A DNA stretch of 64,000 nt. Source: a virus (Duplodnaviria; Heunggongvirae; Uroviricota; Caudoviricetes). Of the stretch, positions 5,591-58,000 are shown piece by piece (the first letter of the stretch is position 1; each line of letters opens with the position of its first letter). A model generated the notes under the pieces. It was given only the letters and a program-made list of their open reading frames with translations. It had not been told where the DNA came from and ran no database searches. The stretch is taken from IMG/VR virus record IMGVR_UViG_3300028908_000001, positions 1-64,000 of that record. One strand, written 5' to 3'. The position numbers were made by a program, and so were the translations under genes.

Positions 5591-5619
5591 TAATTATCCC
5601 CGCCCGCGGCGGCTATCAA
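5591..5619 (-). promoter_or_regulatory. sigma70-like promoter, family copy 1 (TTGATA-N17-TAATTA, GGGGATAATTA core)
   Basis: Minus-strand -35 at 5614-5619 and -10 at 5591-5596, about 15 nt upstream of the ATG at 5575. The motif overlaps the stop of the MTase gene. Confidence 0.5.
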
Positions 5620-6503
5620 ACCTCGTCGTTCAATAGCCGCGGCTGTTCGGGCTGCTCTTCTTGCTGCGAACCCTGCTCATGTGCCTTCCGCACTCGTTCG
5701 GCCATAATCTCGAAGTATTTCGATTCCTTCTCAATGTGGATGCCGCGGATACCGCGCAATTCGCAGGCGACAGCCAATGTACCAGAACCAGCAAAGGGAT
5801 CGAGAGCCGTGCCATCTGGCGGACAGATGTAGCGAAGCCACCAGTCGCACAACCTATGAGGTGTTGGAGCTCCGTGGGCCACAGCGCGACCACCCACAGA
5901 CAAGATAATATTGTATGGCGTAACACCCCCGCGTTCGCGGCAAGCCCCGTAAATGGTCTCATGAATTTTTTGATAACCAGAAGGAGAACGTTCATGTCGG
6001 GCAATCAATTTGGCAGCCAAAGTCGCATCCGCCGGTGACCACAACACAGCTTCTTGCTTCCGATAGCAGTTTGATGCCCCAAGCCACACGCAATGCTTGA
6101 CGCTTCCTCGCAATAAGCCAACGTCGCGAGCCGTATGTCTAGTGGGCATAGCATTGTAGTTCCACCAATAAACATCTTGGACAAGATTCCAGTAGCGGGC
6201 CGCCCATAGCACGAACTCCCAAAGCCACAACCGCATCTGGCCCCGATGCTTGAAATTGGGCTGCAGGACAAACACAGCGCTGCCTGTGGGCTTCGTCAAG
6301 CGTTTGACCTCTCGCACCACGTCATGCATTAGTTCGTGCCACTCGTCTTCTTCCCAGTAGCCGTACTCGCGCTTGATGCCCGGATAGGGTGGGTCTGTGA
6401 TAGTGGCATCTATAGATGCCGCGGGCAGCGTCGGCAGTACCTCGCGGCAGTCACCAAGTATAAGCCTCTGTTTGCCGATGGTGAGCTCTTGCATGTCAGT
6501 CAT
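5616..6503 (-). CDS. DNA methyltransferase (beta-class amino-MTase, PF01555-like)
   Basis: ITDPPYPG (motif IV) near the N-terminus and LDPFAGSGTLAVAC (motif I, FxGxG) near the C-terminus. Confidence 0.85.
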   Translation of the reverse strand: MTDMQELTIGKQRLILGDCREVLPTLPAASIDATITDPPYPGIKREYGYWEEDEWHELMHDVVREVKRLTKPTGSAVFVLQPNFKHRGQMRLWLWEFVLWAARYWNLVQDVYWWNYNAMPTRHTARDVGLLRGSVKHCVWLGASNCYRKQEAVLWSPADATLAAKLIARHERSPSGYQKIHETIYGACRERGGVTPYNIILSVGGRAVAHGAPTPHRLCDWWLRYICPPDGTALDPFAGSGTLAVACELRGIRGIHIEKESKYFEIMAERVRKAHEQGSQQEEQPEQPRLLNDEV

Positions 6504-7501: not shown

Positions 7502-8304
7502 AACTCATCACGAATGCCGCACTCGTCTGCAACGCAAAGGACTCCGCTGTTGTCGAAGACAATAGCACGGTGGTTCGGCCGACGGTACACAAGAACAATA
7601 GGCTCATATTGCAAAATCCGAACTATAGGCTGCCCACGTTCACCACGAGGAGGTATCCGCGAAGCGGCAAACAGCCTTTCGCGGCCTTCGTCCGTTTGGA
7701 GGAAGCGCACAATTTGCTCTTCGTCATCGAGTGAAGGGAAGCGCATTGACCGCCACCAACCGAGTCTTACCCGCTGGCCGCCCGGCCAGACTAACGGCGC
7801 GGTCGGTTCCAGTTCGCGTATGGGCAATTCAAGTGTGCGAAGTGCAACATCCAAAATCGGCGGCGGTGCCCATGCGAATGTTTCCGCCAGCGTGTGACCC
7901 CATTCCCTGTAAATCGCCTTTTCCACCAATTTAGGCCAAGCTTGGTCAATCCACCTGCGGATTTCGTACACAAGCCGCACTGTCGGTTCATGCTGCCACC
8001 CAATGCCACTTGAATGACCCCATTCGATATAGTCGCGTTCGGGGAAGTACTCGAACTCGCGGACCCAATTCACGAAATGTAGAGTATCGACAGTGATAGG
8101 CGCGGTATGATGGCTTATACCATCGCCGACATGAACTTCAAGAAAGCCGTTGTGTGCCACCAAATTGCCTGCCAAGTACTGACACATGGCTATTCTCCTC
8201 CTATCAATGTTGGTTGCGCCGCTAGTGTTTGTATGCGTTTCACTGTAGTTTCGACGGTCCGCTCTTGGATGGCACACACCAAGAAGCGGCTTCCTACTCT
8301 TCAT
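7498..8304 (-). CDS. hypothetical protein (start trimmed to an internal Met)
   Basis: The ORF is open to 8424, but the upstream gene ends at 8294, so the internal Met at about 8304 is the more likely start. Confidence 0.45.
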   Translation of the reverse strand: MKSRKPLLGVCHPRADRRNYSETHTNTSGATNIDRRRIAMCQYLAGNLVAHNGFLEVHVGDGISHHTAPITVDTLHFVNWVREFEYFPERDYIEWGHSSGIGWQHEPTVRLVYEIRRWIDQAWPKLVEKAIYREWGHTLAETFAWAPPPILDVALRTLELPIRELEPTAPLVWPGGQRVRLGWWRSMRFPSLDDEEQIVRFLQTDEGRERLFAASRIPPRGERGQPIVRILQYEPIVLVYRRPNHRAIVFDNSGVLCVADECGIRDEL

Positions 8305-9193
8305 CCAATACTCTACGCAAGCTACGCAAGACATCTCGGCGAGCCTCAAGCAGCTCTTGGGTCTTCTGCTCTGCGAGTTCGGTGGCCCGCGCCGTGGCAT
8401 CCTCGTACCATTCATTCCCATCATGCACCAGCCGCGGGCATACCTCGAAAACTTCCAAGTGATACTCAGGATGCTGCCATGTATCCTTCAAGTCTTTGTA
8501 ACTGAGAGCCGCCGCGATAATGGGCTTGTGCGGCAAGCCCCATACGCGCACCTGTACCCCAGTGAGATCGCGCGTTTCTTCAATAGTGGCCCGCCAGTAG
8601 ACCTTGGCGCTTTCGCGTATCCATTGCCAAGGGTTGTCTAGAGAACGGATGTATGCCGCCGCGCGGGCCGCTAAATCCTCCGTCTCGCCCTTGGTCAAGC
8701 CAAACATGTCAGGAGAACAACTGATAGCAATTGCCGCGGCCCACTCATCCGTTGCCTCTTCCCACGGCTTGTGCAGCATACACAGCTCCTCATAAAACTG
8801 CTCCTTCGGCCCCGGCGGCAATACACCCTTGACAGCAAACGCCCGCGGCCCCCACTTCTCTACATAACGTTCCATCAGGTCGCGCAGTGTAATGTCTTTA
8901 CCCTCAGGCAATGGGTGCCGCGCCAGTATGGACTGTGCTTCGTTATAGGTGATGATGCGTTCGCCACCGCGGCGGTACCGCGCAAACTTCGACATCCGAG
9001 TTATCATATCCCAGATGTGCTCCGCTACGTACTCTACAGTTTCCTTGTCCCCGCGCTTCACATGCATCCAAAGCAAATACTCATCCTTGGGATCGAGCGG
9101 GGTGAAGCAGCCATAGTAGTCGTTCTTAGCTTTCTGCCACGTGGCTACCAGTTCGGCGAACTGCTCTTCGCGAGCGCTCTTGGTTCTAGCCAT
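8294..9193 (-). CDS. hypothetical protein
   Basis: 299-aa ORF; its ATG at 9193 follows an AGGGTGA SD and the conserved promoter copy (9211-9239). Confidence 0.6.
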   Translation of the reverse strand: MARTKSAREEQFAELVATWQKAKNDYYGCFTPLDPKDEYLLWMHVKRGDKETVEYVAEHIWDMITRMSKFARYRRGGERIITYNEAQSILARHPLPEGKDITLRDLMERYVEKWGPRAFAVKGVLPPGPKEQFYEELCMLHKPWEEATDEWAAAIAISCSPDMFGLTKGETEDLAARAAAYIRSLDNPWQWIRESAKVYWRATIEETRDLTGVQVRVWGLPHKPIIAAALSYKDLKDTWQHPEYHLEVFEVCPRLVHDGNEWYEDATARATELAEQKTQELLEARRDVLRSLRRVLDEE

Positions 9194-9210: not shown

Positions 9211-9239
9211 TAATTATTCCCCATAGCGGCGGCTATCAA
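9211..9239 (-). promoter_or_regulatory. sigma70-like promoter, family copy 2
   Basis: Same TTGATA-N17-TAATTA arrangement with a GGGGAATAATTA core, upstream of the ATG at 9193. Confidence 0.5.
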
Positions 9240-11521
9240 ACGTCTTCCTGCTCAGCCTCAAGCTCTGCTACTATTTCCTCTGCGATACGTGCCGCTTCGT
9301 CGTCCACGAATGCGTCTTCGTTTTCGATAGCCACGCCGACGTGATCTTCAACTAAGTTCTGGTCTGCTTCGCCAATGTTGAAACGCACTTCGCCGGCCTC
9401 TTGGTCCTCGGCGTCCTGCCGTCGCTTGGCACCAAACACAGCTTGCAGACGTGCCGCGAGCGGGGAAATTACTGGCTTGGGTGGAGCCGGGCGGCCTTCA
9501 ATAGCTTGCTCCATCTGCTCAAGCCACTCGCGGCTATCCTCTCGTGCCCTGCGGGCTATCTCATCAAACAAGTCCTTCGGCATGACATCACCACTCCTCT
9601 CCGCGCGGCTTTCAGGCCGCGCCAGCATCCGTGCCTTGGCCCCACGCTCCGCCTCCTCCCGCTCGACGCGCTTCCAATACTCCGCATTTTTGCGCCGCTC
9701 GGCACGTTCCTCAGTGCGCTGGCGCACCTCTTCCAGTTGCTGCAGGTAGCGCTCGTGCTCTGCTGCCGCTTCGCGTATGCCGCGCGGCACGTGGCTCAAT
9801 CCCAGCGATCGCCAGAAAGTAATGTCGTTATATTCATACCGTGAGATGTCACGGCTGACAAGCCAGCGGGTGTACTTTTTCGCTTCGCGGGACGTCCACG
9901 GATGGCGGGGCGAAGGGTCATAGTATGCCGTGTAACCTTCATGGTACAGTTTGTAGCCCTGGTCGAACCAGTCTTCGTTGGGTGACAGCCGCGCGGCTTT
10001 CACCTTTCGCTTGCGAAGCTCGAACAGCCTGCGGGCGCGGTAACACCATCGACAGTCACCACCGAACGCGCGGCAACTGAGCAGCCCCGCGCGGCCATAC
10101 CGTAATGGGCAATGTAGCGGAATATAACCGACCTTGCCATGCACCAACAACGAAGCAAACGGACAAGCGTAGTCTTCTTTTGGATGCTCAAGACGCCAGC
10201 GAGCGATGAATGCCGCCGCGGGGCTACTGACGGGGCCACGCTTGAACGTACACGTCACAGAGCGGGGATTACCCTTGACAGCCCCCCAGGGTATTGCTAT
10301 CCATCCCTTCTCGTGGAATAGTTTGCCTATTCCCTTGTCCAACACTTCTCGGTTTTTGTCCTGCCGTTCGGTTGTGTCGGCCGCGTCGCGGGTGATAACA
10401 GACGATGGCCCGTTATCTGCAAGAGAGCGGTGGAAAGTATTTGGTTTTGTTATCTCTCTCTTCCTAGAGAGAGATATAACAGGGAGCTGTGGGATAGCAG
10501 GAAGCTTTGGGGCAGGATAGCCGCACGAAAAAAATGGATGATGATGCCATTCGGCGTGGCCGGTTGCTTGGTCACAGAAGTACCGCCGCACCTCGGGGTC
10601 TTCGGCTATGCGCCGCAGGATGTGCCGTATGGCGTCCAGTTGTCGGGCGTTTACGGTGATGGCCGCGCTGCCAGCAAAGCCGAGGGCACGTGGATGGAGG
10701 TTGTAGACACTACTTGCGGGGTATTTGGCCGCGGGCGGATACTTCTTTCTACGCTTCATGGGGACACCGTAGGCTATTTTGGCTGTCTTTACGTGGTGGT
10801 TGGCCTTGTCGCGTGCTTTGGCTGCCGCGCGGCGGTTGCCGTCTTTGTATGCCCGCCGCATTTCGGAACGGTAATTGTTCGCCGCGCGGAACTGCTCGAT
10901 GACGAAGGCTTCCACTTCGACGGGGAAGTCATGTATCTTCTTGAGGTGCCGCTCGAACCAGCGCAGGTCGTATGCCTTGGGCTTCAGCGCGGGCTTATAG
11001 TAGTACCTGAGTTGCCCCGACGATGGACTGCGGTGCTGTTCCCTCCTCACGTGGCCTTTGTCTGATAGTTTCTTCAATGTCTGCGCGGCGTGTGTGTAGC
11101 TGATCTTGAGTGCCGCGCTGACGCCGTAGGCGGTGAGGCCCCAGGAGTTTGGGTGTAGCTGGTGATGTTTCTTGACGACGTAGTAGGCCGCCGCTTCGTA
11201 GTGGGAGAGCGTGTCGGGATGCTTTCTGGGCGGCTTGCGGCGGCTAACATTCCACTCGGGGTCTACAGGATCGCCGAGGGGATAGTCGTAGGTAACATCG
11301 CCGACGGCGACGTATCGATGCTTGGACGCGCGGCTATGGGGAATAACGGGGCCTTTGTCTTTGATTAGCCCGCGCTTGATGAGTCGTTGGATAGTATGCT
11401 TGACCCTATCGCGGCTTACACCAAGATAACGCCCCATTTCCACCGAGGACAGTGGCTCCGGGGCGTATATCCTGAGGAGTTGATGTACTTGTGCTTCAAG
11501 TTCGGTTAGATGTTCAGCCAT
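9236..11521 (-). CDS. large HTH-containing protein, putative replication initiator or organiser
   Basis: 761 aa with an N-terminal winged-helix-like segment (MGRYLGVSRDRVKHTIQRLIKRGLI) and a Cys cluster (CRAFGGDCRWC). It lies next to the helicase and carries an internal palindrome plus an AT-rich patch (see findings). Function not established. Confidence 0.6.
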   Translation of the reverse strand: MAEHLTELEAQVHQLLRIYAPEPLSSVEMGRYLGVSRDRVKHTIQRLIKRGLIKDKGPVIPHSRASKHRYVAVGDVTYDYPLGDPVDPEWNVSRRKPPRKHPDTLSHYEAAAYYVVKKHHQLHPNSWGLTAYGVSAALKISYTHAAQTLKKLSDKGHVRREQHRSPSSGQLRYYYKPALKPKAYDLRWFERHLKKIHDFPVEVEAFVIEQFRAANNYRSEMRRAYKDGNRRAAAKARDKANHHVKTAKIAYGVPMKRRKKYPPAAKYPASSVYNLHPRALGFAGSAAITVNARQLDAIRHILRRIAEDPEVRRYFCDQATGHAEWHHHPFFSCGYPAPKLPAIPQLPVISLSRKREITKPNTFHRSLADNGPSSVITRDAADTTERQDKNREVLDKGIGKLFHEKGWIAIPWGAVKGNPRSVTCTFKRGPVSSPAAAFIARWRLEHPKEDYACPFASLLVHGKVGYIPLHCPLRYGRAGLLSCRAFGGDCRWCYRARRLFELRKRKVKAARLSPNEDWFDQGYKLYHEGYTAYYDPSPRHPWTSREAKKYTRWLVSRDISRYEYNDITFWRSLGLSHVPRGIREAAAEHERYLQQLEEVRQRTEERAERRKNAEYWKRVEREEAERGAKARMLARPESRAERSGDVMPKDLFDEIARRAREDSREWLEQMEQAIEGRPAPPKPVISPLAARLQAVFGAKRRQDAEDQEAGEVRFNIGEADQNLVEDHVGVAIENEDAFVDDEAARIAEEIVAELEAEQEDV
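10450..10477. other. perfect 11-bp-arm inverted repeat (ttatctctctc-ttccta-gagagagataa) inside the 761-aa gene, next to an A-rich patch
   Basis: Read directly; candidate origin or binding site within the rep-like gene. Confidence 0.5.
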
Positions 11522-12577: not shown

Positions 12578-13486
12578 TCATATTTCTTGGTCGAGGGGTA
12601 ACTGGCGTGGCCATTTGTTGGCCGCGAGGGCCTCTCGGGCCGCGGGGTTGAGCCACAAACACTCAATGCGTGGCTGTTTTTCTTCAGCCGAACCAGTGCC
12701 TAGAATCCGAGTTTTCACCGTTCGAGCAGCCGCAAAGCATACTGTCTGGGCATCGATGCGGTGCCATCCGTGTTCCTCTAGCGGGTAATATATCTCGTTG
12801 CGGTAGCCACTCAGCACCACCATACCTTTTACCGCGCCAGAGAGCAAAAAATCGACGAGTTGGCGGTGCTGTTCCAAGGTCATTTCATAATGGTACACAT
12901 TGGTGCTACGGCGTGCGGAGGGTACATACGGAGGGTCAAGATAGTGTAAGCAGTCGGAAGTATCTGCGGCCCTCATGGCGTCCCTGTAATCGCGGCACAT
13001 TATTTGCGTCGTGCGGAGGCGCTGCACGATGTGTGGCAAGAGTTCTATCGCTGTGAGCCATCTGGCGACGGCCACGCTTCCCAGTTGTGTTGATGCGGTC
13101 TTGCTAAAACTCCAGCTTCTGTCCCAATACCCCGAGAAGGATTGCCTAGCCACTACCCACCATTTCCATGCGCGGCGGAGTTCGTCCTCTTCGTCGCGCC
13201 ATGTGTCCCTGCATTCGCGCCACAGTGCTTCACTGTATTCTGTTAGCTGCGCGAGGCGAATAAACTCTTCCCCTCTATCGCGCAGTACGCGGAAGAACGT
13301 CATGACAGCTTGGTCAATGTCGTTGATTGTCTCCACCTCGGTGGGTTCCTTTGCGAAGAAGACAGAGCCGCCGCCGAAGAAGGGCTCGCAGTATTGTTTG
13401 TGCGGTGGCAGATGCCGTAATATCCATCCCACTAAATTACCTTTGCCACCGTACCACCAGATGGGCGACCGTAATCGCTTAGGCAT
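12578..13486 (-). CDS. Dam-family N6-adenine DNA methyltransferase (alpha-class, D12)
   Basis: PIWWYGGKG, EPFFGGGSVFF (motif I) at the N-terminus and YLDPPYV (motif IV) later. Confidence 0.85.
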   Translation of the reverse strand: MPKRLRSPIWWYGGKGNLVGWILRHLPPHKQYCEPFFGGGSVFFAKEPTEVETINDIDQAVMTFFRVLRDRGEEFIRLAQLTEYSEALWRECRDTWRDEEDELRRAWKWWVVARQSFSGYWDRSWSFSKTASTQLGSVAVARWLTAIELLPHIVQRLRTTQIMCRDYRDAMRAADTSDCLHYLDPPYVPSARRSTNVYHYEMTLEQHRQLVDFLLSGAVKGMVVLSGYRNEIYYPLEEHGWHRIDAQTVCFAAARTVKTRILGTGSAEEKQPRIECLWLNPAAREALAANKWPRQLPLDQEI

Positions 13487-14930: not shown

Positions 14931-15144
14931 ACAGCAGCCCCATGATGATAGCCGCGGCCATTACTATGTAGAAGACTTTGGTGGCCGAGCACTGCGCATA
15001 CAAATGCAACCACACCGGCGGCTCGTAGTCGCGGAACCGGAGTTGCTGCAGCCGCAGGTCGGCCTGCCAGACACGGTACGCACACCATAGGCCCAGCAAA
15101 CCGAGGCCCACTGCGGCGGCTACCTGCATGATACCCAGTTGCAT
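14908..15144 (-). CDS. small two-TM membrane protein (putative)
   Basis: Internal Met start (MQLGIMQVAAAVGLGLLGLW) chosen to avoid a 78-nt overlap; two hydrophobic helices. Confidence 0.35.
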   Translation of the reverse strand: MQLGIMQVAAAVGLGLLGLWCAYRVWQADLRLQQLRFRDYEPPVWLHLYAQCSATKVFYIVMAAAIIMGLLYAGYAYH

Positions 15145-15684: not shown

Positions 15685-16638
15685 TCAGCCAACGATAGCG
15701 ACAGGAATGTGCTTGGCTGGGTTGTTCTCTGCCGCATTGACGTAGTGTGCATAAATTTGGGTGGTCCTCGGATTACGGTGTCCAAGTTCCTCTTGGACGG
15801 CCCGCTCTTCGGCACCGTGCTTTAGCGCCAGAGTTGCGGCGGTATGTCGCAGGTCGTGGGGCCGGTGCTCATGCAAACCGGCGGCGTCCAAGTACTGCCG
15901 TATGACCCAGTTCAACCCGCGGCTGGTCAAGCCCTTGTACGCACCGTGGCCGCGGTCACGGATAAACATTGGGTCCGTGGGCTGGGGCTTACCGACTTCG
16001 GCTTCGCGGCGGGCAAGCCACTCCATCAATGCCAATTCCGTATCCTCCCGGAGAAACACAATGCGTTCCTGGCCCTTGCCCCTCGCGATCACATAGGGGG
16101 CTTCCGTGGGCCAATAATCTCTGACCTGCATATTTATCACTTCTATCTGTCGCAGGCCATGAATTGCCAGCAAGCCAAGAATGGCGCGGTCACGCCATGC
16201 CCACAGGTTGTCACCCTTCACGGCGGCAAATAGTCGCTGCAGTTCTTCTTCGGTGAGTGCCCGCGCGGGTGCGAGATAGCTTTGCTTGGAGAACGGTACC
16301 TTTACTGTGCGGGCAGGATTGTGCGCTACCAAGCCGTCGGCCATTAGCTGGCTATAGAAGATTTTTAGCACCGTAATCCGGTGATGGGCCGTCGTGGGCA
16401 ACAACCCTTCCTCGGCCAGCATGTGGTCGCGCCAGTCGATGACATCATCAACCGTGGCGGTCAAGGGGTTGATCCCGTTCTCGTTGCACCAATTCAACCA
16501 CTTGTTGACGACGGCCCAGTACGTCCTGATGGTATTGGCCGCCGTAAAGCCGCGGCGGCGCATATAGCTCCAGAAGGCTTCGCGCAGGTCACGATACGGT
16601 TCCATCATCGCTACGGGCATGATAGCCATGCTAATCAC
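15685..16638 (-). CDS. int: tyrosine integrase/recombinase (phage integrase family)
   Basis: C-terminal catalytic signature HDLRHTAATL...GHRNPRTTQIYAHY (R-H-R-Y with the Tyr nucleophile) and an N-terminal SAM-like core-binding domain. Confidence 0.9.
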   Translation of the reverse strand: MISMAIMPVAMMEPYRDLREAFWSYMRRRGFTAANTIRTYWAVVNKWLNWCNENGINPLTATVDDVIDWRDHMLAEEGLLPTTAHHRITVLKIFYSQLMADGLVAHNPARTVKVPFSKQSYLAPARALTEEELQRLFAAVKGDNLWAWRDRAILGLLAIHGLRQIEVINMQVRDYWPTEAPYVIARGKGQERIVFLREDTELALMEWLARREAEVGKPQPTDPMFIRDRGHGAYKGLTSRGLNWVIRQYLDAAGLHEHRPHDLRHTAATLALKHGAEERAVQEELGHRNPRTTQIYAHYVNAAENNPAKHIPVAIVG

Positions 16639-22935: not shown

Positions 22936-23100
22936 TGAGTACCCCTCCTATTTTGTATTGTGCCTAACGGCGCGGCGGGAACCCGTTCGCGATTGAGCGA
23001 GTTCCCGCCGGGCCATTAGGCCCGGCCTGCGGCGACTAAATCCGCGCTGCGACCTCCCGCGCGAGCGCCATTAGCGCCCGCTCGGCGGCGCGGCGGCTAT

Positions 23101-23388
23101 CTATCGGCAGCATGCCAGCAGCTCCACGGCGGCGGCCAGCGCCCGTGAGGCTATCTCCTCCGGCGTGCAATCGCCGTCGGGTGCCCAATGCCACCCGTCC
23201 ACGTCGCGCGACACTCGGTCCAGCGTCGCGTAGACGGCGACGCGCTGCAGCCCGCTGCCCCAGTCGCTACCGTTGCCGTCGGCGACTGCGACCACCTCCA
23301 CCGGCGCGCCGTCGATTAGGTGGTCCGCTATCTCTGCCGGCCGTATCTGCCGGCCGGCAGTCGTTATTGTGATACTGACCACTATCAT
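23101..23388 (-). CDS. hypothetical protein, first gene of the leftward arm
   Basis: Start at MIVVSIT with GGAGG upstream; the longer ORF-track form has a low-complexity R/G-rich N-terminus. Confidence 0.4.
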   Translation of the reverse strand: MIVVSITITTAGRQIRPAEIADHLIDGAPVEVVAVADGNGSDWGSGLQRVAVYATLDRVSRDVDGWHWAPDGDCTPEEIASRALAAAVELLACCR

Positions 23389-23417
23389 CACCTCCGTTGT
23401 GATTGACGCCGTACGGC

Positions 23418-23461
23418 GCCGCGCTAGGATACCCGAGGCAGATATCCTAGCGCCGCGCTGT
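23418..23461. promoter_or_regulatory. long imperfect palindrome (16-bp arms, 15/16 match; gcgccgcgctaggata-N10-tatcctagcgccgcgc)
   Basis: Just upstream of the first leftward gene (start 23388); operator candidate. Confidence 0.45.
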
Positions 23462-23997
23462 CCACGTCCACCACATTGCCCCCAGCGGCGCGTATGCGAT
23501 ATCCGCTGCCCATACAGGCGATATACGCGCGCGTGCCGCCGATAGATACCTCCACTCCTCCCGTCCGTCGCAAACAATCCTCCATTGCCGTTCACCTCCG
23601 TAGTCTATTCTACCACATTTATCGGCACCGAGCAATGCCGAGATAATTCCTGCGCTACCTAATTATCGCCCCGCGCGGCTACCGTTTACATTTATTTACA
23701 TCCTCCACTGACCATTATCCTACTATCCTCTATAGTATCGCGCCATTCTGCCCAATTCCCCCGCCGCGGCTGTTGCCCAAACCGTATCCTAATCGTGCCT
23801 AATCTGTGTCCACTATAATCCCCCAATCGCACCATATCACCCCCAACCCCTAACTCGCACCCTAACCCCAACTCATGCCCCACAGCGCGTTACGCGCCGC
23901 CCTAGCGCCAGCAACGACCATTCTCCCAGTAGCCTCTCCCTATGTGCTTCCTAATACCACCACCGCCAGCGACACAACGCTATTCGCCCCAGTAGCA

Positions 23998-24122
23998 CGA
24001 TGTTATCCCCGCCAGTGACACGATGTTACTTCATCGTGTTATCGGCAAAATTGGTAAAAATGCCGGTGTTTGCCCCACTGCCGATTAGGTTACCATTATC
24101 GGCATTGCTAGCCATATCGGCA
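23998..24122. promoter_or_regulatory. cluster of short repeats: (T)TATCGGCA direct x3 plus one inverted (tgccgatta), CACGATG inverted repeat, ACGATGTTA x2
   Basis: ttatcggca at 24039, 24097 and 24114; the inverted copy at 24079; cacgatg-ttactt-catcgtg at 24019-24038. A further ttatcggca copy lies at 23618. Confidence 0.5.
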
Positions 24123-24783
24123 TGCCGAGCGTGTACCGACAGGCCCGATCCCCTATGCGTACCCTACGGCAGACCGGCCCTGGCATAAATTAGTACCTAC
24201 AACACACACGTGCGCGCGTCTGCGAGGCGCGTGCTCTGTGGGGTTAGGTTTGTGCGCGTTTGCGGGTTTGGGGTGGGGTATGGTTGCGCGTGGGCTGTGG
24301 TTGGCGGCGGGCGGCGCGGCGGCTGCGCCGAGGCGCGTGGTTGGCGGGTGGTGTGGCGTGCGGTTAGAGGGGTATGTAGTATATATAGATATGGGATATG
24401 TAGTGGGTTGGGGATTTGTTCGCAGGTATGGTAGCCGCGCCGGGGTGAAATGTGGACGGGAATGAGAGATAGGGTGGGGTTAGACTGGGTGATGTTCAAT
24501 AGTATGGCAGATGTATGGATGATTGGTGGCCACCGCGGGTGGTGTTGTAGAGGGGGTTATGTGTTCATTTGCGTTAGTTTGCGTGTGTTTGTGTTATGTT
24601 GAGTGATGGTGCGTATGGATGTGTTGTATAGTGTGGTAGATGTGTTAATTTGTGATATGTTGTGGTGGGATATGTGAAGGTACGTGTGTATATGTATATA
24701 GGGGATGGTATGGGTTAGTAGCCGCCGCGGTGGTGGGTTGGTTATGGTATTTGGTGGGCGTGGGCTGATAGTAGGGATGGGGT

Positions 24784-24812
24784 TTAGGCGGCCGCCGGAT
24801 GGGGAATAATTA
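24784..24812 (+). promoter_or_regulatory. promoter, family copy 3 (GGGGAATAATTA; weak -35 TTAGGC)
   Basis: About 22 nt upstream of the ATG at 24835. Confidence 0.4.
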
Positions 24813-24834
24813 TGCAAAGTGTTATAGGAGGCAT

Positions 24835-25257
24835 ATGATGATGCGTGTGGGGTACAAGGTTGTACGGCGGGTAGATGGGCGGTATTTGTCGTTGAGTGTG
24901 GTGGGGGCTTGGGAAGTTGAGTACCGAGTGGGTGAGTGGGTATATGGGGTAGAGGTTGGTGGCCGCCGGACGGCGTTATTTGTGTGGGAAGATTGGGGCC
25001 GGGCGCTTGCGGATGTGCGATATGGCACGTGCTTATGGCGTTGTGAATATGAGCCGTGGGATATTAGGGTGCCGCTGGCTGGGGACAGGTTATGGTTACC
25101 GCCTACTCGCTGCCGCGAGATGGAAGAGTATTGGAAATATGTGTTAGCTGGTGATGTGGGGCAGGCATTGCTGCGGGCACCTGGGTTTGGGCCGCGGGGC
25201 GTGGTGATGGCCGCGCGGGTGCGGTTAGTGGAGCTAGTATGGATGCCGGAATGGTAA
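24835..25257 (+). CDS. hypothetical protein (Gly/Val/Trp/Arg-rich), first gene of the rightward arm
   Basis: ATGATGATG at 24835 follows a perfect AGGAGG and lies downstream of promoter copy 3. Composition reflects the GT-rich strand, but the sequence is not low-complexity. Confidence 0.45.
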   Translation: MMMRVGYKVVRRVDGRYLSLSVVGAWEVEYRVGEWVYGVEVGGRRTALFVWEDWGRALADVRYGTCLWRCEYEPWDIRVPLAGDRLWLPPTRCREMEEYWKYVLAGDVGQALLRAPGFGPRGVVMAARVRLVELVWMPEW

Positions 25258-25592
25258 AAAGGTGGGTGGTAGAGATGAGAGTAGAGGATATAGCGTGTGA
25301 GGTTAGTGGCCGCGGGCGGATGGTGGGTAGTGGGGCTGTAGTATTGGCGGATGGGAGTATAGTGAAGGCTTGGCGGTTGTGGGTTGGGGATCGTGGGGTT
25401 GTGTACTTGGGTAGTGAGGTTGATGGTTTTTGGCAGCAGGTGGGTGGTATGGTATTTGAGGAGGAGATAGCCGCCGGTGTGGTGTATATGCATCCGTGGG
25501 GTAGCATTGTTGGCGTGACGATAGCCACGGAAGGAACGGATGTTCGAGACGAGCAAGAGAAGGAGCGTGACAGCGATGGTGACGAAGGATAA
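25239..25592 (+). CDS. hypothetical protein
   Basis: 117-aa ORF; alternative internal starts at 25251 or 25275. Confidence 0.45.
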   Translation: MDAGMVKRWVVEMRVEDIACEVSGRGRMVGSGAVVLADGSIVKAWRLWVGDRGVVYLGSEVDGFWQQVGGMVFEEEIAAGVVYMHPWGSIVGVTIATEGTDVRDEQEKERDSDGDEG

Positions 25593-25893
25593 GTATCTAA
25601 CAAACCCGATGACTTTGGGTGAGCTGGCGAGAGAGTGCTATGAGAAGGTGGCCGAATGTCGTTGGGAAGCCTATGAGATTGCGCGGCTATTGGGATGGGA
25701 TGTTGCGGAGGTACGGATGGCCACGCCTGCGGATGGCGTTGAGCACGAGCTGGCGGCGGTCTATCACGAACTTCTGCATCTTCATGGCTTTCTAATGCAT
25801 TTGCGGGATGAACTGGGTCGCCAGTCAGTGTGTGATGAATGTGCCGCTGAGGGAACGGGTGTCCGACTGGGGGCGAACAACTCTGAGGAGTGA
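25576..25893 (+). CDS. hypothetical protein (HELLH and CDEC motifs)
   Basis: ORF open from 25540; the internal ATG at 25576 avoids overlap. Confidence 0.5.
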   Translation: MVTKDKYLTNPMTLGELARECYEKVAECRWEAYEIARLLGWDVAEVRMATPADGVEHELAAVYHELLHLHGFLMHLRDELGRQSVCDECAAEGTGVRLGANNSEE

Positions 25894-25896
25894 CGC

Positions 25897-26097
25897 ATGA
25901 TGTCGCTGTCTTGGGATGTGTTTGTGGGGTTATATGTGACCGTGGGGATACGGATATTATTTGCCGCGGCGGATCGGTGTATTGTTGAACGCGGCCTGTG
26001 GGATGGGTGGGGTTTGTTGTTTGACTTGTTGGGGGCCGCCGCGTTGTGGTGGCTCTGGCTACGGGCTGCTTGGTGTGAGCCGCGCGATGCGGAGTGA
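25897..26097 (+). CDS. small Cys/Trp-containing hydrophobic peptide A, paralog of B
   Basis: 66 aa with a GAGGAG SD. Shares the conserved motif RCIVERGLWDGWGLLFDLLG with peptide B; two hydrophobic segments. Confidence 0.5.
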   Translation: MMSLSWDVFVGLYVTVGIRILFAAADRCIVERGLWDGWGLLFDLLGAAALWWLWLRAAWCEPRDAE

Positions 26098-26107
26098 GGT
26101 ATGTGAG

Positions 26108-26293
26108 ATGACGCTTTTGGCCCTCGCAGTAGGATGTGTGGTATACGGCCTGATGCGGCTGATGTTTTACTGTGCGGGTGTATGTATTAGCCGCTGGGGG
26201 TTGTGTGATTGGCGCGGGCTATTGTTTGACTGCTTGGGCTTCGGGATATTCTGGCTGGTGTGGTTTGTTGTTTGGTGGCCGCGCCGTGGCTAA
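26108..26293 (+). CDS. small Cys/Trp-containing hydrophobic peptide B, paralog of A
   Basis: 61 aa with a GGAGTGAGG SD; motif VCISRWGLCDWRGLLFDCLG. The two units are about 70% identical at DNA level, consistent with a tandem duplication. Confidence 0.5.
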   Translation: MTLLALAVGCVVYGLMRLMFYCAGVCISRWGLCDWRGLLFDCLGFGIFWLVWFVVWWPRRG

Positions 26294-26297
26294 CGTC

Positions 26298-27266
26298 GTG
26301 GACCGCATCCGTCTGAGCAAGGCCGCAAAGGAGGTAACGCAGGGCGACGCCCCAGAGCTTCTGGATATAGCTATCACGAAGCGCTGCACGAGGCGATGTC
26401 CCTACTGCTATATGGATGCTGGGGACGCTGTTGATATGCCGCTGGTGGCGTTCGAGAAGCTAATGGAAGAAGCAGGCAGGATTGGGGTATTTCAGGTGGC
26501 CCTCGGCGGCGGTGAACCCACTATCCATCCGCAATTCATCGACATCTTGGCTTGTGCTCGCCAGCACAAAGTGGTTCCCAACTATACGACTAATGGCGAC
26601 AACTTGACCAATGAAGTGTTGGAAGCCACTGCGAAGTACGTCGGCGCGGCGGCTATCAGTTACCACGACGGCCACCGGTCCATTGAGCGCGGCAAGCCGC
26701 TAACAGAAGTCGTCCCTACCAACATACACTTTATTCTGGGCCATGAAACGGTAGACGAAGCTATTTGGCTGCTGCAGCACCGCGAAGCGTGGGCAGACTA
26801 CAATGCTGTCATATTCTTGCGATACAAGCCTGTTGGCCGCGCCGATGCTTCTGGGGCGTTGACAATCGAGGACGCTGCGCGGTTTCTTGCTGCTGTAGAG
26901 GAAACTGCTGGTGATCTTAGCGGGGCCATCGGCTTCGATGCTTGCTTGGTACCGTTGCTTTTCGGCGGGCCGTTTGCTGATTTCACCTACAGCGCCTGTG
27001 GTGCAGCGCGGTTCAGTATGTTTGTGGACGTTGATGGCCGCGCTGCTCCGTGTTCTTTCTTTCGCGACAAAGCGTGGCCGTCGGCATTCGAGCATGGTAT
27101 CAGGGGCTGCTGGCATAGCAAGCCATTCGAGGAGTTCCGGCAGTCGCAAGAACGAAACGGCGAATGCGCGGGCTGCCAGTTTAGTAAAGTGTGCCGCAAG
27201 TGTTTGCTACTGGATGATATTTGCGGCCCGCGCGTGCGCCAGTGTAGGGTGAGCAGCAATGCTTAG
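26298..27266 (+). CDS. radical SAM enzyme with C-terminal SPASM/twitch domain
   Basis: CTRRCPYC (CxxxCxxC), GGGEPT glycine-rich SAM motif, SPASM signature CGAARFSMFVDVDGRAAPC plus CAGCQFSKVCRKC. Start uncertain: the ORF is open from GTG 26172 and overlaps peptide B; GTG at 26298 lies 5 nt after peptide B's stop. Confidence 0.8.
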   Translation: MDRIRLSKAAKEVTQGDAPELLDIAITKRCTRRCPYCYMDAGDAVDMPLVAFEKLMEEAGRIGVFQVALGGGEPTIHPQFIDILACARQHKVVPNYTTNGDNLTNEVLEATAKYVGAAAISYHDGHRSIERGKPLTEVVPTNIHFILGHETVDEAIWLLQHREAWADYNAVIFLRYKPVGRADASGALTIEDAARFLAAVEETAGDLSGAIGFDACLVPLLFGGPFADFTYSACGAARFSMFVDVDGRAAPCSFFRDKAWPSAFEHGIRGCWHSKPFEEFRQSQERNGECAGCQFSKVCRKCLLLDDICGPRVRQCRVSSNA

Positions 27267-42907: not shown

Positions 42908-44731
42908 ATGGAACGCATTCTAAAGTTGCGGACTAAGGATGGCCAAGAGATCGAAGCCGTGGTCATTGAAGACCCGCGGCCAGAAGTAGATGCACGCCTC
43001 ATCAAGGGTGTAGACGATCCCCTCGCGCCTCATTTTGTCCTTGAGCGCTCTGCCTTCCGGAACAAAGAACGCTACATTGCGCTAGAAAGCCCACAGGTCA
43101 TTGCCAAGCAATACGATCCGTTCTTCCGTTCGTACAACATCACTGATGTTGCGGAGCCGCCGGTGCCGCCGGGCTATTATGTCGAGATATATCGCCGCTG
43201 TCCTACTACTCGCGCGGTGATAGACGCTCGCGTGGCGGCTGTCGTGGGCCTCGGATATGATATTCGCTATAAGCCAGAAGTGGCGTGGCAGGGTCAACAC
43301 ACCACTCTCAAGGAACCCGATACTGCCGCGCTGAACCGTCGCGAGAAAATTTTGCGGGCAATCGAGAATTGCGGGGCACTCCTGTCCTTCCAGGAACTGC
43401 TGGAAGCCGTTTGGCTTGATGTGGAGCTTACAGGCAATGGCTATATTGAGCTGACCCGCGATGGCGAAGGTGAAGTAGATGGTTTCCGACACTTGCGCAG
43501 TGTAGAGGCGCGCATATCGAAGGACTACCGCGTTATCTATCAGATCAAGAACTATCAACCAGTGCAGGCATTCGCCATCTATGGTACGGAAGCCACGCAT
43601 CTATTGGTAGAGCCTATTCGCCAGAAGGTTGGCCGCGGCCATCGAGAACTTTGGAAGGTCGTGGGCCTCCACAAGACTGTTTCTCCGGATGAAGTGGAGA
43701 AATGGGGCGAGGAAGGTAGGGAGATACGTCCCACGCACGAGATGTTACATTTGAAACATTATTCGCCCGCGGACAGCATTTATGGCGAGCCGCCCATTTT
43801 GTCGGCCGTCGAAGATTACCTTGGTGGTCTTTATGCGCGGCTGTTTAATATAAGCTACTTCAATGCTGCTACAGTTCCGCGCATGATGATCATCGTCAAG
43901 GGCGGCGAACTGAACCCCAATGTCGAGGCGGCCATCAAGAACTTCTTGCGCGAGCAGGAAGCAATGGAAGCTCTCAACCAGTGCCTGCTTGTCACGGTGC
44001 AAGAGGGCATGGACGTACAGATAGAGAAGCTCAGCAGCGAGCAGCTACGCGACGCTGGCTTCATTGAATATCGCGAACAGTGTGACGCTGGTATTCGCCG
44101 GGCTTACAGAGTGCCGCGAAGCTGGGTTGGCGAAGTCGAAGGCGGCGGCCGCCAACAGGTTACAGAAGTCAATCAAAAGTTCCTGCAGGCCGTTGTGCGC
44201 CCACACCAGGTTCGCCTCGAGTCGGCGTTCAACCGTGTTTTCCGTGAGCGCCTCGGCGTGGACGATTGGGTACTTGTTCTGCATCAGCACCAGGTCATGG
44301 ACCGCGAAGTCTTCGCGCGATGGGCGGAGACTCTGCGGCGCAATGGTATAGCTACCATCAACGAACTCCGTGCGGAGATAGGCTTGGCACCGATACCCGG
44401 TGGCGATATTGCACACATTATGCCGATGGGCATGGGTGTTGTACCTGTCCAGTACTTGGCGGCATTAGCACGGGCGCTGCAAGAAGGCCGCGGCGATACA
44501 TTGCAAATAGAGAATCCAGCCGAGGGCTTGAAGCCCATGGGACTTGCGTTCTTGGCTGAGCCGAGGTTCGAGAAGCAGGCGGCGGCTGCCAAGAATGAGT
44601 GGATTAGGTTCTTGGGTTGGTTGCAGGCCGCGGCCGACAGCGGCACACTCGATAACATAGTTTCGTTGGTATCACCAGAACCAACACGGGTGGATGTTTC
44701 CGATGAAGACGAACCATCCGATGCAGACTGA
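42908..44731 (+). CDS. portal protein
   Basis: 607 aa directly after TerL; position and size are canonical. Confidence 0.75.
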   Translation: MERILKLRTKDGQEIEAVVIEDPRPEVDARLIKGVDDPLAPHFVLERSAFRNKERYIALESPQVIAKQYDPFFRSYNITDVAEPPVPPGYYVEIYRRCPTTRAVIDARVAAVVGLGYDIRYKPEVAWQGQHTTLKEPDTAALNRREKILRAIENCGALLSFQELLEAVWLDVELTGNGYIELTRDGEGEVDGFRHLRSVEARISKDYRVIYQIKNYQPVQAFAIYGTEATHLLVEPIRQKVGRGHRELWKVVGLHKTVSPDEVEKWGEEGREIRPTHEMLHLKHYSPADSIYGEPPILSAVEDYLGGLYARLFNISYFNAATVPRMMIIVKGGELNPNVEAAIKNFLREQEAMEALNQCLLVTVQEGMDVQIEKLSSEQLRDAGFIEYREQCDAGIRRAYRVPRSWVGEVEGGGRQQVTEVNQKFLQAVVRPHQVRLESAFNRVFRERLGVDDWVLVLHQHQVMDREVFARWAETLRRNGIATINELRAEIGLAPIPGGDIAHIMPMGMGVVPVQYLAALARALQEGRGDTLQIENPAEGLKPMGLAFLAEPRFEKQAAAAKNEWIRFLGWLQAAADSGTLDNIVSLVSPEPTRVDVSDEDEPSDAD

Positions 44732-55020: not shown

Positions 55021-58000
55021 ATGCGACATCAATTTGAGTGGGAAGTCAAAGCCCATATTGATGCGCAGACAAAGAAGTTATTTGAGTTGCTGGCTGCCCC
55101 GCGGAAGCGAGCTGTGGCATTGCGTGGCGAGAGACTTGGTGTTGGTGCTGAAGATGTAACGCGCTGGGCGAAGCGGGCTGAAGAGTTCCGCAAGCGCATG
55201 GAAGCCGCGAATGCGCAAGCCGCCAAGATGCAGAAGGAAATGGAGCGGCTGGCGGGTAAAAGCGATGAGGTGGCGAAGGCGCAGCGCAAGATATTGGAAG
55301 AGGAGATGGCGGCCGCGCGGGCTTCCGCCGAGCATTGGCGGCGGCGCATGAAACAAGCGCGTGATGTCACGCGCATGTACGAACAGCAGTATCGCTTGGT
55401 GCAGCAGCAACGGCGCGAAGAAGCGCGACTTCAGCGCGCGCAAGCCCGCCGCGCGGCCGAAGAGCAGAAGGCACAAGCGCAGCGAATGCGACAGATAGAG
55501 CAACAAGCCCGCGCTGAGGCGCGTTGGCGACGGCAGCAAATGCGCTACGCCCAGATGTGGGAGCGCCATGCGGAACGGGTCCGCCGCCAAGAGGAACGTG
55601 CCGAGCGGGAGCGCCTGCGGCGTCAGCGCGAGACAGCACGTGCTGCCGTCTACGTGCGGCCGCTGGCTGGGGCAGTGTTGGGTGAGCGGCTAACAGCCCG
55701 CGCTGAAGCTGCTTATCAGGGCCGCATATCTCTCTTGCGTCACTTGTACGGCAGGGCACGGGCCGACAGGGAAGGGGCGGCATATTGGATGAGGCAAGCT
55801 GCCGCGGTCCGAGGCAGCCTGTGGCGCTATCGCGGGGCAATCGCTATCGGCCGCGGTGTGACAGCAGCGCAAGAATTGTTGGGCATCGGGCCTTCGGCCG
55901 CAGCTTATGCCGCAGCCCAGCGCGCGTTGGCCGATGTAACGAAGCGGCGCGTAGCTTGGGAGAAGACATTGACACAGGCTCAGCGTGAAGGCAACCGTGA
56001 GCAGATGCGTGCCGCCGCGGCCACCGTGCGCTTCTATCGTGCCCGCGAACGTGTGCTGCGGCAGATCGTCAGGGAAACTCGCGCATTGCGTAACGCGCGC
56101 ACGCTATGGGGACACATGTCGCGGGCATGGATGTGGGCCACGCGGCAATTATTGCGTGTCAATAACGTATTCGGCCGCACAATAGCCATCTGGAATACGC
56201 TCACCTTGCCAATGCAGCGGTTCTATTGGACGCTGACTTCTATCTTTTATATGATCAACAACTTAGTGCGCCCCATCCGACAACTCGAATATGCCCTATG
56301 GAATTTAGCCCGCCGGATGATGGGAGAAGTTCGCCGCGGCTTCGCGGCACTCATCAACGAGATAGCTGAACTACAAGAAAAGTCAATGCAGTTGTATGCG
56401 ATGTATGGTGCCCGCGGTTTGGGAATGTTCGGTCAAGCCCTGCGCTTCACCATCGGGCGGCCATACACCACCCAAGAGATCATGGGTGCGTATAGGATGA
56501 TATACGCCCAGAACCTACAGCGTTTGATGGCCCCCGAACAGATTATCTCGATGGCCGCGCCGTTAGCCGCCGTTTACCGCGACAAACTCCAAGGGGGCGT
56601 GGAAAGCGTCGTTTACGGTATTGGTCGCGCCGTTCATGGCGACTGGCGCATTCTGCGTCGCCTCGGCATCACTCGTCAAGGCGTTGAAGAGCGCTATGGC
56701 ATTAAAACCCGCGGCCTCAAGACCGAAGAGGAGCGCAATAAACTCTTGCAGGCTATTCTCACGGAGATCAAGCTCCGCTTCGGCGGCGTTGAAAAAATGA
56801 TGAGCAACACATGGAACCAAGTCCTACGCGATTTCTCGGACATCAAGACATTGTTCGCTTGGGTGTATGGTCACACTCCAGGAAATGTCTTCGGTATGTT
56901 GCTGGGAGCATTAACAAAAATACGAGACGTATTGCTCACTTGGTCTAAGGAAGGCTGGTTCGCATACTTTGCACAGAAGTTGAGTGAGTTGACTGTGTGG
57001 CTACAGCCGCTGCTGGACTGGGTGGCGGGGCACATGGATGAGCTACGTACGATAGCCGCGGCCATACTCGATTGGGTCAAAAGTGGTATCAATGCTTTAC
57101 TTAAAGCATTCACTGGATTTGACATGGAGGACATAAAACGTTTGCAGGCAGAATACATTAAGCGCGGGCTACCAAAACAACTAGCCAATCAGATGATAGC
57201 CAACCAGATTTTGCAGAGTTTGCTTGACAAGATATACGAATGGGCACCGCGTGTGCTGGAACTACTTGGTGCAATGCTTAAGCTGCAGAGAGCCGCCGTG
57301 GCTGTTGCATTGTTCGTGGCCAAGGCTGTGGCTGGGTTGGTAGATTTCTTCACGCACCAAAAACCTGGGACCACAGCTCGGACGAAGACAATGGGGCAGA
57401 CCCTAGGTGATTGGGCAGCCTATGCCGAGCAGGCTTTCACGGCGGCACAGCAGTTCTTGGAAGCTTGGAAGAAGCAATTTGAAGCGAGTCCTTATGCTGG
57501 CCCGCGCGGTCATACCTACTCGCCAGCGCAGCGCATTAAGGGACTAATGCCGCCGCGGCCATACTACGATCCAAATACAAAACAAACCTATTGGTACTAT
57601 TATGATGCCAATGGCCGCGTGCGATGGTATCCACATCCGCCCAAGATGCGCCACTATCAGAGCGGTGGCTATGTCGAACAGACTGGCCCAGCCGTCGTAC
57701 ACCGCGGCGAAATGGTGCTGCCAGCAGACAAAGTGAAGAAGCTGTGGAACTTACTGACGGCCGCCGATGCCTGGGGGCACTTCTCAAGGGTGTTCCGCGC
57801 TGGCGGCGGCCTCGTTTCGGCGTTTGCGCCTATGGTTGGGTTGCCTGCATATGGTCTCGGTCTGGTGGGTTCTGCGGCTTCTTGGTGGCGCGGCCGACAG
57901 GCAGCACATTATGCGAAGAGCACAGGTCTCGAAGCGGTCATGCGCTATTATAGTCGCGGCGCTGCTCTGATGAATATGCGCGCCCCGTGGTATAAGAAGC

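Follow-up and report, generated by a model that had tools for sequence, protein, structure and literature searches.

The 64,000 nucleotides analysed here (hereafter the window) are positions 1 to 64,000 of the IMG/VR virus record IMGVR_UViG_3300028908_000001, assigned to the Caudoviricetes. At about 24 kb lies the hub that is the subject of this work, a region from which two arms of genes diverge and at which the base composition of the two strands switches sharply. The plus strand of the window carries terminase, portal and tail genes (recognised with Pfam and PHROG), and the minus strand carries genes for a helicase, two adenine methyltransferases, a YifB/ComM-like AAA+ ATPase, an integrase and a 761-aa winged-helix protein. 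Given this content (integrase, terminase, portal, tail), the window probably belongs to a temperate tailed phage. Part of the contig ERZ27262694 k141_140543 (93,880 bp) of the European Nucleotide Archive (ENA) is identical to the window, and a locus taken from it (L085) corresponds base for base to window positions 16172-37266. Gene calls on L085 are exclusively on the minus strand up to 23585 and exclusively on the plus strand from 24238. These calls, together with the Pfam/PHROG-supported genes elsewhere, agree with the polarity described in a first-pass annotation of the sequence (left arm minus, right arm plus). An assembly artefact was considered and is unlikely, as the contig was assembled twice independently (93,866 bp at JGI, 93,880 bp at ENA).

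Strand composition switches at the divergence point of the gene arms

GC skew, calculated in 200-nt bins, had a mean of +0.04 and a standard deviation of 0.18 over the window. In the bins covering 23601-24000 it ranged from -0.40 to -0.55 (-0.55 at 23.7-24.0 kb) and in those covering 24201-25600 from +0.47 to +0.74 (+0.74 at 24.5-24.7 kb). All of the top 15 positive bins lay inside 24201-26200, the two most negative bins were at 23701-24000, and the cumulative skew reached its minimum at 24 kb. Two-segment likelihood fits placed the change-points at ~23549 (left boundary), ~24224 (central switch) and ~26279 (right boundary), and the strand that reads outward from the hub was C-poor for 0.45 kb on the left and for 2 kb on the right. 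The polarity of the skew matches the gene arms exactly. The region before the first convincing right-arm gene can be divided as follows:

23549 to 24000, minus strand: left domain with a cytosine-poor sense strand, the leader of the leftward arm (plus strand 14% G and 40% C; skew -0.47; 5-11 sense 5'-YC dimers, i.e. pyrimidine followed by C, per 300 nt)
24001 to 24237, no strand: compositionally neutral core (skew -0.11; GC content 0.55)
24238 to 24834, plus strand: right untranslated leader (9% C, 44% G, 31% T; skew +0.65; no coding signal)

The best 1-kb skew of the window was 0.62, at 54% GC. Comparison loci (~2.1 Mb of DNA obtained for other purposes) gave a largest 1-kb |skew| of 0.51 among arbitrary phage loci from IMG/VR (1.12 Mb) and of 0.52 among metagenome loci (0.96 Mb); both maxima fall in low-GC DNA, and none of these loci equals the value of the window. 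The skew plot thus confirmed the extreme mirrored bias that the first-pass annotation had described at the divergence of the arms, and nowhere else in the window is the bias as sharp. Several details of that description had to be adjusted. The plus strand between about 23640 and 24195, described as almost free of G, is G-poor, but it still contains 14% G and is depleted only as far as ~24000. Similarly, the right side is C-poor but not almost free of C, since 9-15% C remains, concentrated in G/C-only islands. The right-hand bias extends not to 25500 but to ~26290, and the CACGTG motif (24207-24212) on which the switch was said to be centred is close to it but ~15 nt off the fitted position. 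The left domain shows no A/T asymmetry.

Neither leader resembles a gene or a known structured RNA. Two ORFs (open reading frames) called in the right leader (24238-24465 and 24462-24602) had the in-frame codon scores of non-coding sequence, and an ORF of 75 codons occurred by chance in 34% of block shuffles, which upholds the earlier statement that no credible ORF lies in 23596-24834. Rfam contained no family matching the leaders (a single chance miRNA-like match fell outside the hub), and the predicted folding of both was ordinary, with z-scores of -0.5 for the right leader and -1.3 for the left one.

G replaces C at synonymous sites of the right-arm genes

The C-poor zone continues from the right leader through five small ORFs, which are followed by a radical SAM gene:

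24835 to 25257, plus strand: ORF1, 140 aa, ORFan rich in Trp, Val and Gly (ribosome-binding site AGGAGG; positive codon score; C frequency of 0.09 at codon position 3)
25239 to 25592, plus strand: ORF2, 117 aa, ORFan (positive codon score)
25576 to 25893, plus strand: ORF3, 105 aa, ORFan (ribosome-binding site AAGGAG; called as a gene on L085)
25897 to 26097, plus strand: ORF4, 66 aa, small, hydrophobic and Trp-rich (codon score; paralogue of ORF5)
26108 to 26293, plus strand: ORF5, 61 aa (BLASTP match to ORF4 with 41% identity, E 2e-8)
26298 to 27266, plus strand: radical SAM/SPASM gene (Pfam), the first gene with normal composition

The coding status of ORF1-4 was judged from ribosome-binding sites and from leave-one-out in-frame codon scores, all of which were positive. 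The skew was +0.50, +0.63, +0.30, +0.45 and +0.37 in ORF1 to ORF5, respectively, and about 0 to +0.2 in the radical SAM gene; the skewed domain stops at the stop codon of ORF5 (change-point 26279). No Pfam or PHROG family matched ORF1-5, and an AlphaFold model of ORF1 computed without an alignment was uninformative (pLDDT 32).

At the four-fold degenerate sites of ORF1-4, C decreased from.354 to.145 and G increased from.289 to.491 (chi-square p = 3e-12), with only small changes in T (+.05) and A (-.04); GC content at third codon positions (GC3) was unchanged and the purine fraction rose from.46 to.62. In two-fold degenerate codons ending in a pyrimidine the T:C ratio was 57:18 compared to 504:703 in reference genes (p = 6e-9), codons of the NTC type had almost disappeared from the zone genes (3 of 112), and the observed/expected ratio of the TC dinucleotide was 0.21-0.24 in the zone versus 0.75 elsewhere. 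The bias therefore acts on nucleotides and reaches synonymous sites. It also reaches the proteins: the first ORFs contain 11.0% Gly, 12.6% Val and 5.6% Trp compared to 6.6, 6.5 and 2.7%, in agreement with the enrichment in these residues noted at first pass. This shift in amino acids indicates that the pressure is old, and the genes have remained intact. The exchange of G for C at constant GC points to selection, so that selection on strand composition is likely and a simple mutational footprint unlikely. A recent burst of hypermutation was rejected in view of the unbroken ORFs and of their adapted amino-acid composition; triplex-forming DNA was rejected because a purine/pyrimidine asymmetry is absent.

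The residual C is concentrated in G/C-only islands

The right leader has 52% of its C residues in islands made up solely of G and C (GCCGC(C/G)G type), which cover 13% of the sequence. Outside the islands the C density is 0.054, compared to 0.21 in control regions, and in the translated ORFs it is 0.097; of the leader C residues outside islands, 83% come directly after a purine. The islands cover 9-13% of the zone, equal to the rest of the genome, and are strongly over-represented in the window as a whole (TRGCCGCSG, 63 seen versus 5.3 expected; CCGCGCGG, 76 versus 9.4; G/C-only runs of at least 7 nt, 747 versus 514 in shuffles). They are often flanked by GAT or GGT and some are palindromic (ATAGCCGCGGCCAT), for example at 14949-14960, 24719-24727, 43630-43641 and 57053-57064. 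Because their normal density persists inside the C-depleted zone, the islands look independently constrained. Could they be a modification or recognition motif? We raise this as a possible role only.

Outward and inward strands differ in predicted Rho-loading features

Sites of Rho utilization (rut) have been described by bubbles in which C exceeds G and by spaced 5'-YC dimers, and G-rich motifs anticorrelate with termination (PMC6144790). The sense strands of the hub contain 5-12 YC dimers per 300 nt, which is the minimum of the window (window median 28), while its antisense strands contain 58-82, the maximum of the window. On the antisense strands, chains of (YC)N9-13 reach 6-18 dimers, and the excess of C over G amounts to +0.2 to +0.37 per base over 23500-24000 and 24200-26300. 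The strands that read inward thus combine a C>G stretch that spans 60-80 nt or more with several YC dimers spaced 9-13 nt apart, the features by which rut sites are recognised.

Over the whole genome, sense-strand YC dimers are also rarer than antisense ones (median 28 versus 48 per 300 nt), and the hub exaggerates this tendency.

The core contains clustered binding-type sites and is flanked by an inverted G-rich element

The core (24001-24237) is presumed to be a promoter/operator (or origin) region. The following elements were found in and around it:

24039 to 24130: significantly clustered protein-binding-type sites TTATCGGCA, at 24039 (plus), 24079 (minus), 24096 (plus) and 24114 (plus)
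24202 to 24219, no strand: perfectly alternating purine-pyrimidine tract ACACACACGTGCGCGCGT of 18 nt, Z-DNA-prone by its sequence, containing CACGTG and lying just before the switch
23822 to 23870, minus strand: left copy of a G-rich element of ~50 nt (CCCTAA string), sense for the leftward transcript
24239 to 24294, plus strand: right copy of the element, with GGGTTTGGGGTGGGGTATGG, located where the right domain begins
23413 to 23461, minus strand: strong hairpin or palindrome with 19-nt arms (89% complementary) and an 11-nt loop, just upstream of a ribosome-binding site

The TTATCGGCA site at 24114 continues into the palindrome TCGGCATGCCGA, and outlying copies of TTATCGGCA occur at 23619 and 23101 (both plus). 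The nearby repeats that had been reported as iterons are present: all five exact copies of TATCGGCA in the window fall inside 23101-24122, as do 6 of the 16 sites that match when one mismatch is allowed. The spacing of the TTATCGGCA sites is irregular (57 and 18 bp) and their orientation is mixed, one being inverted and another palindromic; by this arrangement they look more like operators than like classical iterons. A scan of IMG/VR for paired TTATCGGCA sites returned only noise. The three longest alternating purine-pyrimidine tracts of the window (24680-24700, 24202-24219 and 23521-23536) are all in the 1.2-kb hub; a single tract of 18 nt is by itself not significant. With respect to known origins, a search of 23000-26500 for DnaA boxes, one mismatch being allowed, found none, the core is 55% GC with only a ~19-bp AT-rich patch (24044-24062) as a potential unwinding element, and no recognisable initiator gene adjoins the hub, the hub-adjacent ORFs being without family matches.

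The two copies of the G-rich element are inverted with respect to each other and align with a local score of 42, compared to a maximum of 35 in 200 shuffles. They account for both of the strings that the first-pass annotation had called telomere-like: the CCCTAA and G-run strings exist, but they are copies of one inverted ~50-nt element and not tandem arrays, of which Tandem Repeats Finder (TRF) detected none. Dispersed GGGTTA/TTAGGG units number 2-3. A third copy of the element was not detected by nhmmer, and a pattern scan of IMG/VR gave 4 contigs, all unrelated. The hairpin at 23413-23461 precedes the ribosome-binding site of the gene at 23101-23382, the first one of the left arm that is convincing. 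Since the hairpin lacks a U-tract, it is not an intrinsic terminator; a role as an operator or in RNA processing is possible.

A distant relative has an ordinary hub

GenBank phages include no close relative (megablast of the hub gave no match), and scanning IMG/VR with one protein at a time (ORF1, portal, radical SAM protein) likewise returned nothing. A portal alignment searched against GTDB genomes yielded no prophage relatives and hence no host assignment, and a metagenome scan with a 3-sequence Mg-chelatase alignment was dominated by bacterial ComM/YifB genes and missed relatives. One distant relative, JGI contig Ga0123519_10000348 (locus L084), has a portal 51% and an Mg-chelatase 45% identical to those of the window. 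Its synteny with the window covers the structural genes and the chelatase-integrase-helicase-Dam block, but the neighbours of the hub on either side are unrelated in the two phages. This relative encodes a bacterial beta-clamp and a peptidoglycan amidase. Its sample is listed under an owner associated with hot-spring work, for whom PMC9599585 gives just the name.

The divergent intergenic region of the relative (L084 7426 to about 7860-8372, as the plus-strand gene called at 8372 may start at ~7860) is AT-rich, and |skew| does not exceed 0.31 in 200-nt bins over the whole locus. The comparison with related phages proposed at first pass therefore went against a conserved feature, the sole informative relative being without a skewed hub. 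As the hub of the relative is ordinary, the feature is lineage-specific, and the comparison lends no support to any particular function.

Shorter, one-sided C-poor sense stretches were seen in three unrelated IMG/VR contigs (L088, 8300-9300; L138, 7380-7880; L116, 10836-11335), with skews of 0.62-0.70 in 200-250-nt bins, each lying where an operon begins or immediately before it. The L088 and L138 leaders, which are weaker than those of the hub, were chance finds. Milder versions of C-poor leaders may be widespread.

Other genes of the two arms

ORF5 was hidden beneath a mis-called N-terminus (26172) of the radical SAM gene, whose homologues span only ~80% of the longer gene call and whose true start is probably the GTG at 26298. 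These homologues are cellular and non-syntenic, and the best NCBIfam matches of the enzyme, all sub-threshold, are peptide maturases. Trp-rich small ORFs upstream of a radical SAM gene hint at a precursor/maturase pair. In one contig (L002, JGI Ga0335074_10000260) the radical SAM/SPASM homologue lies among genes for a SMEK_N-domain protein, an SNF2 helicase, an MmeI-like enzyme and GmrSD, an arrangement resembling a defence island.

On the left arm, one of the adenine DNA methyltransferases is CcrM/ParB-type-like and the other Dam-like, and the tyrosine integrase is next to a small HTH_3 gene:

5616 to 6503, 12578 to 13486 and 15685 to 16638, all minus strand: methyltransferase/integrase loci

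The 761-aa protein (9236-11521, minus strand) has two N-terminal winged-helix domains with best matches to TrmB, Lrs14 and Sta1, families typical of archaea. Its remaining ~580 residues gave no detectable family or solved relative in PDB, NCBIfam and PHROG. It is a candidate for a TTATCGGCA-binding or initiator protein. The genes for the helicase, the AAA+ protein and this winged-helix protein lie 5-14 kb from the hub.

Discussion

The hub is a real and statistically extreme strand-composition device that has probably been selected. What would it do? Untranslated and antisense transcripts are normally removed by Rho (PMC11551753), and our best, though tentative, reading is that a temperate tailed phage controls its early genes from this divergent hub, with Rho polarity encoded by base composition. 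Two long untranslated leaders would run outward from the neutral core of ~240 bp with its clustered TTATCGGCA sites, and selection acting on the nascent RNA would have replaced sense-strand C by G wherever the sequence was free to vary. The outward early RNAs would then begin with ribosome-free leaders of ~0.4-0.6 kb with nearly no 5'-YC dimers and no C>G stretch, on which Rho could not load, while any RNA reading inward would be one continuous C>G, YC-dense rut site and would be terminated before crossing the core. Both effects together would make a polarity gate or insulator written in the sequence. In its most specific form, about which we are slightly more doubtful, selection would have swapped G for C on the outward-reading strand, over domains of kilobase scale, to create a bidirectional 'transcription diode' based on composition alone, with outward RNAs that are Rho-blind and R-loop-prone, inward RNAs that are terminated by Rho, and a core insulated without an antiterminator protein or an RNA structure. 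Outward transcription from the core, a canonical host Rho and Rho as the selective agent are all inferred here.

The deeper C depletion of the leaders than of the ORFs is what this proposal expects, since ribosome-free RNA would be the target of Rho. The antisense strands resemble known rut sites in being C-rich, G-poor and YC-dense, with YC chains here of 16-18. Known rut sites, however, are ~60-80 nt long and one-directional, whereas the hub consists of mirrored domains of 0.45 and 2 kb whose rut activity is only predicted, and the near absence of rut features from its sense strand is equally striking. Several points weigh against Rho polarity. Roughly one Rho protein in three is divergent (PMC6144790), possibly including that of the host. 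A sigma-70 promoter scan of the core gave nothing above chance, and terminator scans were at chance level too. The C depletion extends over 1.4 kb of translated ORFs, which ought not to need protection; the right boundary falls on a gene junction, so that the segment could be a cassette with its own history; the ordinary hub of the relative means that the device is dispensable in the lineage; and C-avoidance by itself does not require an enrichment of G.

The main alternative, though rather unlikely, is an R-loop-prone, transcription-activated and possibly bidirectional replication origin, in which G-rich outward RNAs would hybridise persistently to the C-rich template on either side of a core bound by an initiator and so open or prime the origin. 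Such origins have precedents (ColE1, T4 oriF/oriG, mitochondrial conserved sequence blocks (CSBs)), and GC skew has been linked to R-loops, its mirrored form being characteristic of bidirectional promoters that form them (PMC4412123). With our own implementation of a QmRLFS-type rule (a start zone with a G-cluster and, after it, an extension zone with 40% G or more), 17 of the 25 plus-strand and 7 of the 9 minus-strand hits in the window were in the hub flanks, with extension zones of up to 2 kb. One copy of the inverted G-rich element opens the right domain and the other is set ~130-180 nt into the left one, the core combines clustered repeated sites with an alternating purine-pyrimidine tract, and the minimum of the cumulative skew is at the hub. 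Yet G-clustering does not go beyond composition: runs of at least three or four G are at or below the shuffle mean, and a single run of at least five G was seen where 5.5-6.6 were expected. The sites are irregularly spaced and of mixed orientation, DnaA boxes, a substantial AT-rich unwinding element and a recognisable adjoining initiator gene are all missing from the hub, the two sides are very unequal (0.45 versus 2 kb), and the skew is inseparable from the direction of transcription. The same comparison can be made with two groups of known systems. GC-skewed R-loop CpG-island promoters (Ginno et al., reviewed in PMC4412123) likewise show positive non-template skew from the presumed start over 1-2 kb, G-rich elements near the start and, at a bidirectional hub, a mirrored polarity; the present hub differs in being bacterial-viral, in its much stronger skew, in G-clusters that do not exceed composition, and in that hybrids and priming are only predicted. 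The skew switches and iteron origins of bacteria and phages share with it the negative-to-positive change, the cumulative minimum and a cluster of repeated sites. However, replication skews are genome-wide and weak (about 0.05-0.2), whereas that of the hub is local, sharply bounded and 3-5 times stronger, and iteron/DnaA origins have regular direct repeats, a DnaA box, a DNA unwinding element and an adjacent initiator. Because untranslated G-rich RNA to which Rho is blind is also R-loop-prone, the R-loop and Rho explanations are partly one mechanism.

Selection might also have had nothing to do with Rho, which we consider unlikely: the pressure could come from escape from a C-dependent endoribonuclease or an RNA-targeting defence, from CTP economy or from a protein that binds GU-rich RNA specifically, or else the leader and ORF1-5 could be a separately evolved cassette. 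The position of the right boundary at the junction of ORF5 with the radical SAM gene fits this, as do the ORFan nature of ORF1-5, the absence of the hub-proximal genes from the set shared with the relative, and the weaker one-sided C-poor leaders of the unrelated phage contigs L088 and L138. But we cannot name a particular factor, there is no excess of GGA motifs, RNA folding is unexceptional, and the genome-typical GC content and the GCCGCSG islands inside the zone argue against a recent import. A footprint of mutation is quite improbable. In that case the non-template strand, exposed near an active promoter or origin and perhaps at high temperature, would have gained C-to-T and A-to-G deaminations, a process that has shaped the asymmetry of the vertebrate mitochondrial heavy strand. 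Like strands subject to this process or to transcription-associated mutagenesis, the exposed strand of the hub is G+T-rich and C-poor (G+T is 73% in the non-coding right leader), and the effect peaks beside the hub; the association of the relative's sample owner with hot-spring work would also suit a high temperature. In contrast to mitochondrial DNA, it is G and not T that takes the place of the lost C at four-fold sites, with GC3 constant and purines increased; transition-only models misfit, an HKY (Hasegawa-Kishino-Yano) model with raised C>T and A>G deviating from both the four-fold composition (root-mean-square deviation (rmsd).08) and the leader composition (.065). In addition, the ORFs are intact and have good ribosome-binding sites, the G/C islands are kept at normal density, and the left domain has no A/T asymmetry. 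Finally, a G-quadruplex or telomere-like element or a structured long non-coding RNA is very improbable. It is true that 13 of the 30 G4Hunter hits of at least 1.5 fall in 23818-25411, all on the sense strand, and that the G-rich element exists in two copies. The numbers of G3+, G4+ and G5+ runs, however, are equal to or below those of composition-matched shuffles (G5+ runs being depleted), most candidates need loops longer than 7 nt (up to 9-12 nt), and neither tandem arrays, an Rfam match nor exceptional folding was found, so that the G-quadruplex and telomere-like functions suggested at first pass lose their basis. The same is true of the suggested GGA-rich sponge RNA, as GGA occurs 12 times where 16.9 are expected.

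A further comparison is with the Thermus phages P23-45 and P74-26, whose largest intergenic regions reportedly contain triplex-forming R.Y tracts, as Minakhin et al. (2008; cited in PMC10770324) are said to have described. In both cases the main intergenic control region of a phage from a hot (for the hub, putatively hot) environment carries extremely strand-asymmetric sequence prone to non-B-DNA. The Thermus tracts are purine/pyrimidine mirror repeats (G+A versus C+T), whereas the hub opposes G(+T) to C(+A), is non-repetitive and extends its bias into genes; the phages are unrelated.

The hub would be a variation on the known logic of skew, rut sites and R-loops and not a category of its own. 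If composition-encoded Rho polarity is true, base composition alone would set the direction of transcription through a regulatory hub over kilobases, and the region would provide a natural and extreme test case for the rules of Rho loading (C>G, YC dimers) and for the link between Rho-blind untranslated RNA and R-loops, as well as a design principle for the insulation of synthetic operons. If the hub is instead an R-loop origin, it would be the bacterial-virus counterpart of the GC-skewed promoters and origins of eukaryotes. Here the synonymous sites exchange C for G at constant GC, a sign of selection, and a strong local GC skew in a phage thus does not necessarily reflect biased replication or mutation.

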